64,000 nucleotides of DNA from contig CBDCSU010000005.1 of NCBI GenBank assembly GCA_965221775.1, forward strand, positions 640,001 through 704,000. Direction: 5' to 3'. This document shows positions 30,013-45,317 of the stretch, piece after piece. The DNA is from Candidatus Latescibacterota bacterium (GTDB lineage Bacteria > Latescibacterota > UBA2968 > UBA8231). A model generated the notes under the pieces. That model saw only the letters and a program-made list of their open reading frames with translations, had not been told where the DNA came from and did no database searches. Each line of letters begins with the position of its first letter. Position 1 is the stretch's first letter. Both the position numbers and the translations under genes were made by a program.

Positions 30013-30714
30013 TCAGACGAAGCGTTCGCGGTGCTGCAGGCGCAGGAGGCCGCCGAGGACGGCGAGGACCGACCCGGCGAGCAGGTAGGCGCGGTTGTGG
30101 AAGGTGTTGCCCGAGCGCACCAGACCCTCAACCTCGTCGAGGAGGTCGAAGGGGTTGTAGAACACGCTCCAGCGGCTGCCCTCCAGGGGCTGGGCGGTGA
30201 TCCAGAGAGCCAGGACGAGGAGCACGAGGATGGCCGCGGCGCCGTTGCCGCTGCGGGTGAAGGTGGCCACGAGGAATCCGGCGCTGGAGAGGAAGGCCAC
30301 GGGGAACATGAGGTGGAAGACCATCTCGTGGACGGCGAAGTCGGTGAGCGCGAAGCGGCAGAACAGGGCCAGCCCGGCCAGGACGACGGCCGCCGCCATC
30401 AGCATCACGGCGTGCCGGACCAACCACACTTTGTAGCGGTAGTCGGGAATCCCGAAAACGGTCTCCATCATGCCCGCGTCGGTCTCGCTCTGCAGGGCGT
30501 ACGCCGAGGGATAGATGACCAGCACCACGCCGGGGACGAGGAGGAAGTAGTAGATGAGATCGGGCCCCGGCGGCACCTTCTCCCCGGCCGTGTGGATCAC
30601 GGCGATGACCAGGAAGAGGGCCACGGCCAGCGCCAGGAACCAGGCGAAGCGGCCGGCGAAGACCTGCCGGGCGCTGTAGCGCAGGAAGGCGGGGGCGCTG
30701 CCCAGGGGCTTCAC
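30013..30714 (-). CDS. ABC-2-type permease-like membrane protein
   Basis: About 6 TM segments, ETDAGMMETVFGIP (E..GT.E-type loop); GTG start overlaps the upstream TGA. Confidence 0.75.
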   Translation of the reverse strand: MKPLGSAPAFLRYSARQVFAGRFAWFLALAVALFLVIAVIHTAGEKVPPGPDLIYYFLLVPGVVLVIYPSAYALQSETDAGMMETVFGIPDYRYKVWLVRHAVMLMAAAVVLAGLALFCRFALTDFAVHEMVFHLMFPVAFLSSAGFLVATFTRSGNGAAAILVLLVLALWITAQPLEGSRWSVFYNPFDLLDEVEGLVRSGNTFHNRAYLLAGSVLAVLGGLLRLQHRERFV

Positions 30715-33700
30715 GTGGCCCGTTCCTCCAGGAGCCACAGGTAGGAGTCCTCCAGCGTCGGCGTCGCCTCCGTGGCCCCGGGCAGGGGCCGCCGGGCGGC
30801 GAGGAGCCGCACGCGGATGCGGTCGTGCTCGCGCATGTGGTGGACGACGCGCGCCGACCGCCGCAGCTCCTCGAACTCGGCTTCCGTCACCGACGCCTGC
30901 CACACGGCGCCGCGGGTCAGATCGACCATCTCCTGCGGGGTCCCGAGGAACCGCACCTCGCCGCCGTCGAGCACGGCGAGCCGGTTGCAGGAGCTGGAGA
31001 TGTCCTCGATGATGTGGGTCGAGAACACCACCACCCGGTCGCGGGCCAGCCCGGCCAGCAGGTTGCGGAAGCGGATGCGCTCGCGCGGGTCGAGGCCCGC
31101 CGTGGGCTCGTCCACCACGAGGATGCGCGGCAGGTGCAGCAAGGTCTGGGCGATGCCGACGCGCTGCTTCATCCCCCCCGAGAACCCCCCGATTTTCTGG
31201 TCGCGGCTGTCCTCCAGGTGGACCGCGGCGATCGCCTCCTCCACGGCCCGGCGCCGGCCGCCGGCGTCCCAGCGCCCCTTCAGCATCGCCTGGTAGTCGA
31301 GGAACTGGTACGCCGTCATGCCCTCGTAGGTGCCGAAGGCCTGGGGCAGATAGCCGATGAGGGCCTGCAACTCCTCGCGCCGCTCCGACAGGTCGATGCC
31401 GTTGACCCGCACCTTGCCCCGCGTCGGCTCGAGGATGCCGCAGAGGACGCGCATGAGGGTGGTCTTGCCGGCGCCGTTGGGGCCGATGAGGCCGAACATG
31501 CCGCTCTCGATCTCCACCGAGGCCTGCTTCAGGGCCGGGAAGGGACGCCGGCGCCGGCCGATGAGGGGCAGGGCGGCCACGAGCCGGTAGAGCATGCGGC
31601 GGCTGCGCCGGAAGCGGCCGGCCAGGCCGTCGACGTTGACCTCGCCGCGGTAGAGCCGGCGGGCGCCGCGGTGCACGGCGGCCCCGAGGTACCAGAGGAC
31701 GCCCACGAGGATGGTGACGGCCCAGTTGTCCCAGCGCTCCTGGTACCAGACCAGGTGGGCCAGGGGCAGCAGCCAGAACAGGGTCGACCAGAGCCCGCGG
31801 ACCAGCCGCCGCCCGCGGCCCTCCGGCGGCGGCAGGAAGGGGCGCACCGTGCCGGCGAGGAAGAGGACGAAGGCCACGGAGAACACCATCGCCCAGAAGT
31901 CGCTGTCGAGGTAGAGGTAGGCGAAGTAGAAGTGGAAGGCGAGCAGCGGCAGTCGCCAGCGCAGGGGGCCGAAGCGGTCGTCCGCCTCGACCTCCCCCGC
32001 CGCGCGCAGGCGCGCCCGCTGGCGCTCCCCCCGGCGCCACTGGCGCAGGAAGCGCGGCTCCTCGTCGTAGACCTTCACGAGGTTGGCCACCGAGATCCGC
32101 AGGGGGCGGTCGCGCGGGATGGGGTCGGCGCGGCTGCGCCGCAGGCTGGTCTGCACGAACCAGGTCAGGGCCGGGATTCCGCCGAGCAGCGCCGTGCCGT
32201 CGACGACGCGCCACAGCAGGCCGTCCACGTGCTCGTGGATCAGCCAGGCCCCCAGGGCCAGGGCCGCCAGCTGCGCCGCCCGGGTCCAGCCGCCGAGACC
32301 GCGCAGCCACGCCAGGGTGTTCTCCAGGCCGGCGTAGACCGTGGGCACCAGGACCAGGGTGAAGAGGGTCCCCGCCAGCAGGCCGCCGATGACCGCCACG
32401 GCGAAGGGCACGCCGATGACGGCCACGTACTCGGCCTTGCCCATGGCCAGCGGCAGCATCGCCAGGACCGTGCTCAGGGCGGTGATCGCGATCGGCCGCA
32501 GGCGGGCCTGGCCGGCCTGCAGCAGGGCCCGCGACAGGCGCGCCCCCCGGCGCTGCCGGGCGCGGGCGGAATCGATGAGCATGATGCCGTTGTTGACCAC
32601 CACCCCGAGGAGGATCACGAAGCCCACGAGGGCGTTGGCGTCGAGGATCGAGTGCCCCGTCAGGACCAGCCCCCACAGGCCCCCCATGGTGGCCAGGGGC
32701 AGGGTGATCATCATCGCCAGCGGCGCCGCGAGGGACTCGAAGACGGCGGCCAGGATCATGTAGATGAGGATCACCGCGGCGGCGAGGAGGAAGTAGAACG
32801 GCTCCAGGTCGGTCTCGTCGTGGACGGCCTCCACCGACACCCCCGACGGCGGCGCCACCGCCGCCACCAGCTCGTCGACGGCGGACCGCCCCTCGGCCAG
32901 CAGTCCCGCCGAGTCGCGCACCTCGTCCTGGAAGCGGTAGCTGACCTCCAGCTCCTTCTCCTGGTTGACGCGCTCGACGCGGGCCCGGCCGCTGGTGTGG
33001 ACGAGATCGGCGAGCCTCGACAGGGGCACCGAACCGCCGCCCTCGGCCGGCACCCGCACCCGGCGCAGGTCCTCGATGCGGCGCTCCCCCGGCTCGGCGC
33101 TGCGCAGCAGCACCTGCACCTCCTCCGCGCCCCTCCGCACCCGCGCCGGCGACGACACCTGCGGCTGGAAGCCGGCCAGCTCGCCGGAGACCGCCTCCTC
33201 GGTGACGCCGTGGTGCTTGAGGGCGGCCCGGTCGAGGACCAGCGAGATCTCCGGCTGCGGCGTCTCTTCCGCCACCCAGGCGTACTCGACGGCGGTCAGG
33301 CGCTCCAGGTTGAACCGCAGGTCGTCGGCCACCCGGCGCAGCAGCTCCATGTCGCGGCCGCGGAGCAGCAGGTGCTCGCCGCCGCCGCCGATCCCCAGGA
33401 GTCGGGCGAAGGCGCCGCCCATGCCGCCGCCGCCGCCGAACCCGCCGCCTCCCCGGGGCGCGTCGAAGTGGAACCACAGGGCCGGAAAGGCCTCCCTCAG
33501 CTGCTCCCCCACCTCGTCGCGCACGCCGCCCATGCCGCGGCCGGCGATCTCGCGGAAGTCCTGCCGCAGGCGCAGGTCGAGGCGCAGCAGGTCGGGCCGC
33601 ACCTCGATGCGGCGCTCCTCCAGCTCCTCCACCTTCGCCAGACGCTCGTCCATGGCCACGGCCAGCCCGTCGGCCATCTCGAGGGTGGCGCCCCCTGGCA

Positions 33701-44430: not shown

Positions 44431-45317
44431 GGACTCCCGCCCTCCGGCTCGATCGACTGCAGGTGATGGAGGTAGGCGTCCTCGAGGCCGGGGGCCGCCG
44501 CCTCCGCCGAGGCCGCGGGCGGCTCGTCGGCCACCAGGCGGACCTCGTATCCGGCCACCGAGGGCACCGTGGAGACCACGGCGAAGCGCTCCTTGAGCCC
44601 GTCCAGCTCGGCGTCGGTGGCCGCCACCTTCCAGACGCGCCCCCGGGCCGAGTCGATCAGCCCCTCCGGCGAGCCCTGGTAGGCGATCCGCCCCCGGCTC
44701 AGCAGCGCCATGTCGGTGCAAGTCGAGGAGATGTCCCCCACGATGTGGGTGGAGAGGAGGATGACCATCTCCCCCCGGGCCAGGTCGGCCAGCAGGTTGC
44801 GGAAGCGCAGCCGCTCCTGGGGATCGAGGCCCACCGTGGGCTCGTCCACCACCAGGATCGAGGGATCGCCCACCAGGGTCTGGGCGATGCCGAGGCGGCG
44901 CTTCATGCCGCCCGACAGCTTGCCCGCCTGCCGGTCGCGCACCTCGAAGAGGCCCACCAGCTCCAGGAGCCGGTCGACCGCCTCGGCCCGCTGGCGGCGG
45001 CCCAGGCCGCGGAGGCGCGCCTGGTAGTCGAGAACCTCCCACGCCGCCAGCCGCGGGAAGCGGCTGAACTCCTGGGGCAGGTAGCTGACCATGCGCCGCA
45101 CCTGGGCCCGGTGGCGGTCGACGTCCAGGCCGGCCACCAGGACGCGGCCGGAGGTCGCCTTCAGCAGGGTGACGAGGATGCGGATGAGGGTGGTCTTGCC
45201 GGCGCCGTTGGGCCCGAGGAGGCCGAACATGCCGCTGCCGATCTCCAGGTCCACCTCCCGGAGAGCGTGGAAGCCGCCGCGGTAGCGCTTGGTCAGGCCT
45301 TGTATCTCGATTCTCAT
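44427..45317 (-). CDS. ABC transporter ATP-binding protein
   Basis: GPNGAGKTT, LSGGMKRR, VVDEPT, LSTH, LEDAYL. Confidence 0.95.
   Translation of the reverse strand: MRIEIQGLTKRYRGGFHALREVDLEIGSGMFGLLGPNGAGKTTLIRILVTLLKATSGRVLVAGLDVDRHRAQVRRMVSYLPQEFSRFPRLAAWEVLDYQARLRGLGRRQRAEAVDRLLELVGLFEVRDRQAGKLSGGMKRRLGIAQTLVGDPSILVVDEPTVGLDPQERLRFRNLLADLARGEMVILLSTHIVGDISSTCTDMALLSRGRIAYQGSPEGLIDSARGRVWKVAATDAELDGLKERFAVVSTVPSVAGYEVRLVADEPPAASAEAAAPGLEDAYLHHLQSIEPEGGSP

Follow-up and report, generated by a model that had tools for sequence, protein, structure and literature searches.

A conserved RND-ABC fusion protein encoded in a seven-gene operon of Candidatus Latescibacterota, a putative composite export module

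The window analysed here is a 64,000-nucleotide stretch from a Candidatus Latescibacterota bacterium (assembly GCA_965221775.1, contig CBDCSU010000005.1, positions 640,001 to 704,000 of the forward strand), and contains a seven-gene operon of which one product, g6, joins an RND permease and an ABC ATPase in a single polypeptide. As the G+C content of the window is about 72%, it holds many spurious open reading frames (ORFs), among which one consistent minus-strand series of seven genes, named g1 to g7, spans positions 30013-45317. An earlier note on this DNA had described seven co-directional, tightly joined genes, and this description proved correct: all seven lie on the minus strand, with overlaps of 1–4 nt or gaps of 8–10 nt between them. 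Translation and scans against Pfam and NCBIfam also returned the gene content as noted before, i.e. an ABC ATPase (g1), a large permease (g2), a TolC-family outer-membrane factor (OMF, g3), an RND-type periplasmic adaptor or membrane fusion protein (MFP, g4), an RND permease (g5), the RND-ABC fusion (g6) and a small membrane protein (g7), with corrections to the labels of g2, g6 and g7 that are given below.

The covalent RND-ABC fusion in g6 is real. An independent DNA contig (X5 record 29; 1,645 nt, with 19 differences and 0 gaps) bridges positions 31466-33110, and thereby the end of the RND module, the linker and the start of the nucleotide-binding domain (NBD). The fusion, which had been noted before, is not a simple end-to-end join: six extra helices are present, four of them inside the NBD after its first strand. 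The order of elements is RND permease, two helices, NBD strand 1, a basic (charged) helix, four transmembrane (TM) helices, and then Walker A with the remaining NBD. In alignment A1, which comprises the last 525 residues of g6 and 15 relatives, the separated strand 1 carries the residues N69, K72, Y74 and D75, invariant in 16/16 sequences, as are the Walker A motif, the Q-loop Gln, the signature, the Walker B Asp-Glu and the H-loop His of the NBD. The four-helix insertion is likewise conserved in 16/16 sequences, and has pLDDT values of 70-86 in the AlphaFold2 (AF2) model, while the preceding helix pair is characterized by conserved W, P and RRSR features. The loops of the extra helices alternate between basic and acidic. 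This charge pattern suggests that RND TM12 is followed by six additional TM helices before most of the NBD is reached, with the NBD in the cytoplasm.

This architecture is shared by a large family. A search with g6 residues 1030-1556 gave 3,813 matches among 7,999 scored candidates, and both PF00873 and PF00005 are present on all 120 listed g6 homologues, 112 of which have a length of 1,522-1,621 aa (the other 8, of 873-1,394 aa, are fragment-like). The named sources among these listed homologues are Gemmatimonadota, Latescibacteria, Zixibacteria and Aminicenantes. When the 253-aa linker was compared to 1.84 billion cluster representatives, 90 proteins were found at E<=1e-3, including 53 at <=1e-10. 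In every matched protein longer than 1,500 aa (about 1,550-1,590 aa) the linker lies at about residues 1040-1300, and the remaining matches are shorter, mostly fragments. One 526-aa protein consisting of linker and NBD (P0211) might be a stand-alone form. In one locus of genome G064 (L021:7159-11797) the g6 equivalent is found as two overlapping ORFs (1129 aa and 423 aa) that separate immediately ahead of the four-helix insertion, either because of a frameshift or an error in the assembly, or because the protein is naturally split; a frame change at about residue 884 in another locus (L013:2-3324) is probably a frameshift in a metagenome-assembled genome (MAG). The genome of the window (5.36 Mb in 6 contigs) has a single copy of g6.

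Gene order was compared in 18 loci from species-representative genomes and in 8 loci cut from genomes of the same phylum. The g5 gene is found directly 5' of g6 in 20/20 informative loci (6 further loci begin within g6), and g7 directly 3' of g6 in 24/24 (2 further loci are cut within g6). Conservation of gene order had been named in the earlier note as one of the tests that could undo its proposal; the proposal passed it, with an invariant g5-g6-g7 order. Within the 18-locus set, g2 lies directly 5' of g3 in 6/7 informative loci, with L007 as the exception, and an OMF gene is part of the operon in 9/9. All 8 same-phylum loci have g2 upstream, although this sample is biased, as five of them were picked by way of a g2 match. 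In the phylum as a whole, the g6 linker was found in 77/168 genomes, and in 32/52 of those of high quality, while the g2 profile matched in 83/168. In 61 of the 77 genomes both are encoded on the same contig, at a distance of about 8-12.5 kb; the other 16 are fragmented assemblies in which g2 is located on another contig (13) or was not found (3). Four genomes that seemed to have g2 only (G082, G042, G064, G156) proved to have g6 next to it. The fusion is conserved down to about 25-35% linker identity, in at least four families of the phylum and in other phyla, including loci labelled Zixibacteria, Aminicenantes and others. No recurring neighbour was seen among 31 flanking ORFs in 14 loci; since the flanking genes differ between loci, the module is self-contained.

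The MAG labels of four loci (L003, L007, L010 and L012) conflict with sequence relatedness. For example, L003 carries the label 'Latescibacterota' but shares 82-93% identity with Gemmatimonadaceae loci, and loci labelled 'Eubacteriales' and 'Deltaproteobacteria' cluster with those of Aminicenantes. In one distant locus a gene for an AbiEii-type nucleotidyltransferase toxin, with a small upstream ORF, lies directly 3' of the operon (L010:15446-16884).

Table 1. Genes and domains of the g1-g7 operon (window coordinates)
Feature	Position	Strand	Evidence
g1, ABC ATPase, 296 aa; ABCA/NosF/DrrA-like NBD with C-terminal extension	44427..45317	-	Pfam ABC_tran 3e-29
g2, permease, 1119 aa; TM region about 1-297, M1 fold about 300-950, Golvesin_C 987-1113	41071..44430	-	AF2 model and profiles
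g2 membrane domain, residues 1-297	43540..44430	-	helices 22-43, 59-89, 103-136, 144-172, 175-192, 220-244, 252-297 (model)
g2 Golvesin_C / carbohydrate-binding module (CBM)-like C-terminal domain	41092..41472	-	Pfam PF25275, 8e-11
g3, TolC-family OMF, 485 aa	39603..41060	-	Pfam OEP PF02321 2.4e-40, two stretches
g4, RND-type periplasmic adaptor (MFP), 355 aa	38527..39594	-	TIGR01730 RND_mfp 191.2 bits vs 94.9 cut-off
g5, RND permease, 1049 aa	35378..38527	-	ACR_tran 1.3e-217; best solved relative MdtB 9lyq_B 4e-90
g6, RND-ABC fusion, 1556 aa	30711..35381	-	single open frame; Pfam ACR_tran 3.3e-151 and ABC_tran 1e-28
g6 RND module, residues 1 to about 1030	32292..35381	-	ACR_tran; 31% identical to g5; best solved relative MdtB 1.3e-73
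g6 extra helix pair after RND TM12, residues 1033-1051 and 1063-1082	32136..32285	-	AF2 helices H2-20, H32-51, low pLDDT
g6 first beta-strand of NBD, LRISVANLVKVYD, residues 1094-1106	32064..32102	-	aligns to g1 MRIEIQGLTKRY; model strand E63-67
g6 four-helix membrane insertion inside NBD, residues 1140-1244	31650..31964	-	AF2 helices 109-126, 130-151, 160-186, 189-213
g6 NBD core, residues 1272-1556	30714..31568	-	47% identical to g1
g7, small membrane protein, 233 aa; about 6 hydrophobic segments, conserved ETLFGIPDYRYKVWL loop	30013..30714	-	no Pfam family

The seven genes form a translationally coupled operon. As read from the DNA, the g1/g2 junction is a 4-nt GTGA overlap, GTGA overlaps also join g5 to g6 and g6 to g7, and g4 and g5 share 1 nt in TGATG. 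The two gaps, of 10 nt between g2 and g3 and of 8 nt between g3 and g4, contain the Shine-Dalgarno-like sequences AGGAG and AGGAGG before g3 and g4, respectively. The downstream border is formed by a convergent thyA gene (29161-29997, plus strand) that ends 15 nt from the g7 stop codon, and the upstream border by an epimerase gene (45462-46562, minus strand) at 144 nt from g1. This NAD-dependent epimerase is preceded on the same strand by a GNAT/FemAB-like acetyltransferase (46590-47549), and a class-III aminotransferase is encoded further on at the plus strand (48037-49875). In locus L002, which is 88% identical, g1 likewise follows a fragment of an epimerase gene, whereas no such fragment was seen in distant loci. 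Scans of both operon ends gave no promoter-like site, and terminator-like sites only within thyA on the minus strand; neither scan is informative at 72% GC.

Pieces of g6 and g7 were found in contigs of three RNA libraries at 90-100% identity, for instance in record 14 of X19 (220 nt, 1 difference), with carry-over of DNA as a possible source in each case. These contigs span only parts of the stretch, and the uncovered parts carry no interpretation. Near-identical DNA of positions 30013-35381 (at least half of the sampled words) occurs in 17 public runs, mostly labelled sponge metagenome, and small shares of the same positions occur in three RNA libraries, labelled sponge, coral and one coded organism.

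Both g1 and the NBD of g6 belong to the ABC ATPase family PF00005 (3e-29 and 1e-28) and have intact catalytic motifs; in g1 the Walker A motif, the Q-loop, the signature, the Walker B Glu and the H-loop can be read directly from the sequence. The closest NCBIfam model of g1 is drrA, albeit at 208 bits, which is under the cut-off of 312, and its closest solved chains are those of ABCA7/ABCA4 (5e-62) and NosF (1.5e-37). With the C-terminal extension included, g1 and the g6 NBD are 47% identical, and g1 is the closest paralogue of the g6 NBD in the genome (46%, the next being 36%). When 47 NBDs were placed in a maximum-likelihood tree, those of g6 (25 sequences) grouped in one clade (support 99/98), and the g1 sequences in a second one together with three stand-alone g1-like ATPases (support 90/91). 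A branch with support 100/98 sets these two clades jointly apart from nine other paralogues, while one paralogue with a very long branch, the placement of which is uncertain, falls inside the joint group. By sequence, g1 and the g6 NBD are thus sister paralogues, and since they form two sister clades, the duplication predates the divergence of the sampled lineages. The stand-alone g1-like ATPases are derived copies, as they are nested in the g1 clade beside g1 sequences of the same family. In one locus (L001:1020-1906) the g1 match consists of two overlapping high-scoring segments, probably due to a frameshift in the MAG assembly.

The full-length AcrB/AcrD/AcrF family model is matched by both g5 (1.3e-217) and g6 (3.3e-151). 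With NCBIfam, both score under the RND_permease_2 cut-off of 1250 (599 and 442, respectively), and far under those of the MdtB and MdtC models. The two RND parts are 31% identical to each other. A low-complexity insert rich in Ala, Gly and Glu, of about 35 residues (about 248-282; window 37682-37786, minus strand), is found in the first periplasmic loop of g5, and has no counterpart in g6. The proton relay of AcrB-type pumps consists of Asp-Asp in TM4, Lys in TM10 and Arg in TM11. When these positions were located by alignment to MdtB, the complete relay was found in neither g5 nor g6, both of which keep the TM11 Arg. TM4 reads Asp-Asn in 18/18 g5 sequences and in 15/20 g6 sequences, the other 5/20 having Asp-Ser (MdtB has Asp-Asp), and TM10 reads Asn-Asp in 19/20 g5 and Asn-Asn in 22/22 g6 sequences (MdtB has Lys-Asn). 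The TM11 Arg is retained in 42/42 sequences, and the first Asp of TM4 in all sequences examined. Unfused RND paralogues in the genome of the window show the same Asp-Asn and Asn-Asn pattern, and it is therefore to be regarded as a trait of the subfamily, not linked to the fusion; for the same reason, the altered relay residues were rejected as a marker of an ATP-driven RND protein. Tandem RND pairs are also encoded elsewhere in this genome (C5:508629-515572 and C6:1173550-1179851), which makes a heteromeric RND pump plausible, and all of its RND paralogues but two have an Asp-Asn-type TM4 and an Asn-Asn TM10.

The two remaining components of a tripartite pump were also recognized. The g3 protein scores under the cut-offs of TIGR01844 and TIGR01845, and has the two OEP repeats of the TolC family. 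Apart from its NCBIfam assignment, g4 is matched by the Pfam models HlyD_D23 (2e-21) and HlyD_3.

The domain structure of g2 is more unusual. Its AF2 model is confident (pLDDT 83.6, pTM 0.81), and shows an N-terminal amphipathic helix, seven TM helices, the last of which is prolonged as a stalk, an M1 fold, and a Golvesin_C sandwich; hydropathy analysis also gives seven segments. As seven TM helices would bring the domain of ~800 residues to the side opposite the N-terminus, it is taken to be periplasmic. With Foldseek, the M1 part resembles IRAP, ERAP1 and the lanthipeptide peptidase EryP (E 6e-19 over about 650 columns), and profile A2, built from 32 g2-family sequences, matches solved M1 aminopeptidases in the PDB (1.3e-9) as well as the C-terminal module of a Paenibacillus xanthan lyase (6f2p; 3.5e-8). 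M1 zinc aminopeptidases are characterized by an HExxH(+18)E zinc site and a GxMEN exopeptidase motif. Neither HExxH nor GxMEN was found in any of the 32 aligned g2-family sequences (0/32), so that the M1 fold of g2 is non-catalytic, and the Pfam scan of g2 gave no Peptidase_M1 match. Hence the M1-like part proposed in the earlier note is upheld as a fold, by both profile and Foldseek, and not by the zinc and exopeptidase motifs. The sole Pfam match of g2 is Golvesin_C (42.5 bits, above the gathering threshold of 31.6); according to one study, the golvesin/xanthan-lyase domain is related to the carbohydrate-binding group CBM6-CBM35-CBM36_like_2 (PMC9166713). Precomputed Pfam matches of g2 homologues include PF12679 (ABC2_membrane_2) in 7/48 and PF12698 (ABC2_membrane_3) in 2/48, and two homologues are labelled NosY-type permease by JGI, while the g2 of the window itself has no ABC2_membrane match at E 0.01. 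Its language-model neighbours include clusters annotated as 'ABC transporter permease/M1 family aminopeptidase', with scores of 0.87-0.88 that can serve as leads only. There is one copy of g2 in the genome of the window. Elsewhere it is found together with a second g2-like gene (g2'), in the order g2'-g1-g2, either adjoining the pump genes on their 5' side (L009) or on a separate contig (L032:6757-14623, L033:3-7729). One g1-like ATPase gene with two or more tandem g2-like permease genes is the arrangement in L027, L028, L032 and L033.

The g7 protein is also encoded by a single-copy gene, and is highly conserved, with a mean column identity of 66% in alignment A3 and an invariant loop around ETLFGIPDYRYKVWL. 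It has almost no periplasmic mass. The label 'ABC-2 permease' given to it earlier is based on sub-threshold matches to ABC2_membrane_2 in 2/16 members (best E 0.02) and on language-model neighbours. Judging from its size, its position and these neighbours in the Atlas, g7 would have a permease role, and it is presumably the permease partner of the fused NBD.

The component families of this operon are known, and their combination matches neither MdtABC, MacAB-TolC, NosDFY nor the annotated ABC-permease/M1 fusions. The likeness to MdtABC-TolC of E. coli lies in two adjacent paralogous RND genes after one MFP gene, in the presence of an MFP and a TolC-family channel, and in MdtB, which among solved structures is the best relative of g5 (4e-90) as well as of the g6 RND part (1.3e-73). 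In contrast, NBDs and extra helices are absent from all Mdt subunits, the identity between g5 and g6 is no more than 31%, both fall under the MdtB and MdtC cut-offs of NCBIfam, and the TM4 Asp-Asp and TM10 Lys are replaced. MdtBC itself is described as a rare RND heterotrimer in a 2021 Chemical Reviews survey of tripartite pumps (PMC8277102). In MacAB-TolC, a type VII ABC system, an ATPase is likewise found alongside an MFP and a channel of the TolC family, and the permease has a sizeable periplasmic part. However, none of the seven proteins has a MacB_PCD or FtsX domain according to Pfam, the MFP of the operon is of the RND type (TIGR01730), its NBDs are ABCA/NosF/DrrA-like, and an RND pump is present and fused to one of them. 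With the ABCA lipid exporters and NosDFY (type V/ABC-2) the operon shares NBDs that are closest to ABCA7/ABCA4 and NosF, ABC2_membrane_2 or _3 domains in some g2 homologues, and a bulky domain on the far side of the membrane, but g2 has a seventh helix, an M1-fold and a CBM-like domain, the operon lacks NosD, and one of its NBDs is split by a four-helix insertion and fused to RND. Finally, the fusions annotated as 'ABC transporter permease/M1 family aminopeptidase' combine an ABC-2-type membrane domain with an M1 fold as g2 does, but those clusters carry Pfam Peptidase_M1, which is absent, together with HExxH and GxMEN, from g2 and its 31 aligned relatives, and g2 additionally has Golvesin_C.

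No characterised example was known to the earlier note, and no characterised homologous operon was encountered in the searchable literature. Neither an RND-ABC fusion nor an ABC-permease/M1 fusion is described in the full-text literature searched, a scope outside which subscription journals, TCDB and supplements lie and may hold a prior mention; papers that matched RND/ABC fusion terms concern, judged by their titles, Rnd GTPases or engineered constructs. In the first 300,000 characters of the 2021 survey, searched by terms, only the NBD-permease fusion of MacB and the MdtBC heterotrimer are mentioned, and no RND-ABC fusion (PMC8277102).

We propose, with a probability of roughly 0.55, that the operon encodes one self-contained, envelope-spanning composite RND/ABC tripartite export module. 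This proposal is based on the covalent tether, the invariant company of g5, g7 and the MFP, the usual company of g1-g2, the non-enzymatic domain of g2, and NBDs that are close to ABCA and NosF. In such a module, g5 and the RND part of g6 would form a heteromeric RND pump, completed by the adaptor g4 and a TolC-like channel, either g3 or one encoded elsewhere. An ABC-2/ABCA-type ATPase module, i.e. the C-terminus of g6 with its six extra helices and catalytically intact NBD, would be tethered to this pump, and could constitute an ATP-driven membrane unit together with g7, the co-translated 6-TM protein. The g1-g2 pair would be a paralogous ABC unit, of which the periplasmic M1-fold and CBM-like domain may act as a receptor or hand-off platform. 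At the inner membrane, ATP hydrolysis would then serve to extract or flip an amphiphilic compound, either secreted or part of the envelope and possibly bearing a glycan or a peptide, and to present it on the periplasmic side, with the g2 domain as candidate receptor, after which the RND/MFP/OMF conduit could capture it and expel it across the outer membrane. This relay, with an ATP-driven step at the inner membrane followed by RND/TolC, is what we infer, together with the direction of the hand-off, the type of substrate, the assembly beyond the covalent link and the stoichiometry.

Several observations weigh against the composite module. The covalent tether is the sole contact between ABC and RND parts that is directly supported. 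The AF2 model of the C-terminal 525 aa of g6 is poor (mean pLDDT 59.6, pTM 0.32, from a 16-sequence alignment), and was unsuitable for a fold search, only the four insertion helices being used; because of this, the topology of the two helices after TM12 is deduced from charges only. For g7, Pfam and PDB profile searches gave no recognised permease family (best PDB E 0.46), and its comparison to the g2 membrane domain with hhalign gave no detectable homology (probability 4.9%). In 6/8 same-phylum loci no OMF gene lies between g2 and g4, so that TolC is not always part of the operon. No g2 is found in the 679 nt upstream of g3 in L007; in that genome the g2-like genes lie on another contig, as g2'-g1-g2. 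Moreover, g1-g2-g2' modules stand alone in phylum family f10 (L027:5146-13312, L028:7428-15008), with no RND, MFP or OMF homologue in the locus. The arrangement in L007 and these stand-alone modules imply that a g1-g2 unit can exist, and perhaps function, apart from the pump. Finally, no hint of a substrate was seen in the flanks of the 14 loci.

A more specific form of the composite module would have one ABC unit per pump, i.e. a single heterodimeric exporter with the NBDs of g1 and the g6 C-terminus and the permeases g2 and g7, on an RND trimer with a single g6 (g5:g6 = 2:1). The earlier note had favoured such a heterodimer, which we regard as a tentative and rather doubtful sub-case. The lineage of the window has two NBD genes and two permease genes, g1 and the g6 NBD are sister paralogues, and if a trimer carries only one NBD, a second NBD is needed to pair with it. 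When g2(1-295) was co-folded with g7, the median ipSAE was 0.33 (runs 0.49, 0.33 and 0.31), compared to 0.00 for the best of 3 controls, with at least 77% of contacts agreeing between runs and a partner pLDDT of at least 72. In the calibration, the mark was reached by 116/157 solved complexes and 2/215 mismatches, and scores <=0.60 were given by only 18/157 solved complexes, plus both passing mismatches, so the support is weak. In contrast, the order g2'-g1-g2 (L009, L032, L033) argues against such pairing, as in L009, where g6 and g7 are present too, it would leave one permease unpaired, and in the stand-alone modules (L027, L028) g1 is accompanied by two large permeases in the absence of a g6 NBD or g7. 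Also, g7 and the membrane domain of g2 are not detectably homologous. Obligate heterodimeric ABC exporters commonly have one degenerate site, whereas both NBDs of this operon are fully canonical. In these loci a single ATPase gene seems to work with both large permeases, and the g6 NBD and g7 would then need a unit of their own, for instance with two g6 per RND trimer. Pairing of the two NBDs with each other is therefore close to evenly balanced with homodimerisation of each (g1 with g2, and two g6 per RND trimer with two g7), with a slight lean towards the latter.

Alternatively, the ABC unit may act by mechanotransmission or control, in which nothing crosses the inner membrane through it: ATP hydrolysis would move the pseudo-M1/CBM domain of g2, and thereby load a periplasmic or outer-leaflet substrate into the RND pump or gate the pump. 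In MacB, LolCDE and NosDFY, ATP hydrolysis moves periplasmic parts, and RND pumps draw their substrates from the periplasm or the outer leaflet. The large non-catalytic periplasmic domain of g2 would suit such a role, as would NosF among the closest solved NBDs (1.5e-37) and the NosY-type naming of two g2 homologues by JGI. However, the closest solved NBDs are those of ABCA lipid exporters, g7 has hardly any mass in the periplasm to be moved, and the Pfam scan of the seven proteins gave no NosD-like or MacB_PCD/FtsX domain, and we therefore consider this explanation unlikely, albeit worth keeping in mind.

A bolder variant is that of a dual-energised machine, in which the split NBD mechanically couples ATP hydrolysis to the RND/MFP/OMF conduit, so that ATP and the proton-motive force power one pump. 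Within a single covalent complex, such coupling may consist in driving the hand-off of an inner-membrane substrate into RND; alternatively, the RND cycle itself may be gated. We hold this to be a speculative possibility with little chance of being correct.

Improbable, in our view, is that the operon encodes independent, co-transcribed machines, i.e. an ordinary proton-driven RND pump and one or two ABC-2 transporters, with the fusion as a neutral accident. It is true that modules of the g1-g2 type exist alone, and that the relay residues of g5 and g6 are those of unfused paralogues, so that the RND part looks self-sufficient. Yet the split NBD and six-helix fusion are kept at about 25-35% linker identity in at least four families and other phyla, the linker occurs essentially only in the g6 context, and the g5-g6-g7 order is invariant; a neutral accident would not persist in this way. 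Least probable of all is an ATP-assisted RND protein, in which the fused NBD would drive or gate the RND cycle via the inserted helices and replace or supplement the proton-motive force: the AcrB triad is incomplete (second TM4 Asp to Asn/Ser, TM10 Lys to Asn) and a four-helix insertion inside the NBD could transmit movement, but the same Asp-Asn/Asn-Asn pattern is shared by unfused paralogues of the genome, no sequence examined has lost the TM4 Asp or the TM11 Arg, and g7 would be left without a role.

Tripartite pumps of the RND and ABC types are textbook alternatives with different energy sources. A third architecture for crossing the Gram-negative envelope would be represented by a conserved family, present in multiple phyla, with RND and ABC parts that are inherited together in covalent linkage. 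This family has 90 clusters at 50% identity for the linker alone. As a composite export module, it would offer a natural system in which an ATP-driven step at the inner membrane is coupled to periplasmic capture by RND, and in which the role of an NBD interrupted by TM helices can be studied; it also places the large and uncharacterised group of fusions between ABC-2 permeases and M1-fold domains in a context. Besides being widespread and conserved, the system is puzzling in its mechanism, and can be tested by standard biochemistry. Its hosts are uncultured or little-studied environmental bacteria, and as near-identical DNA occurs in sponge metagenome runs, the exported compound may matter for envelope biology or for association with a host.

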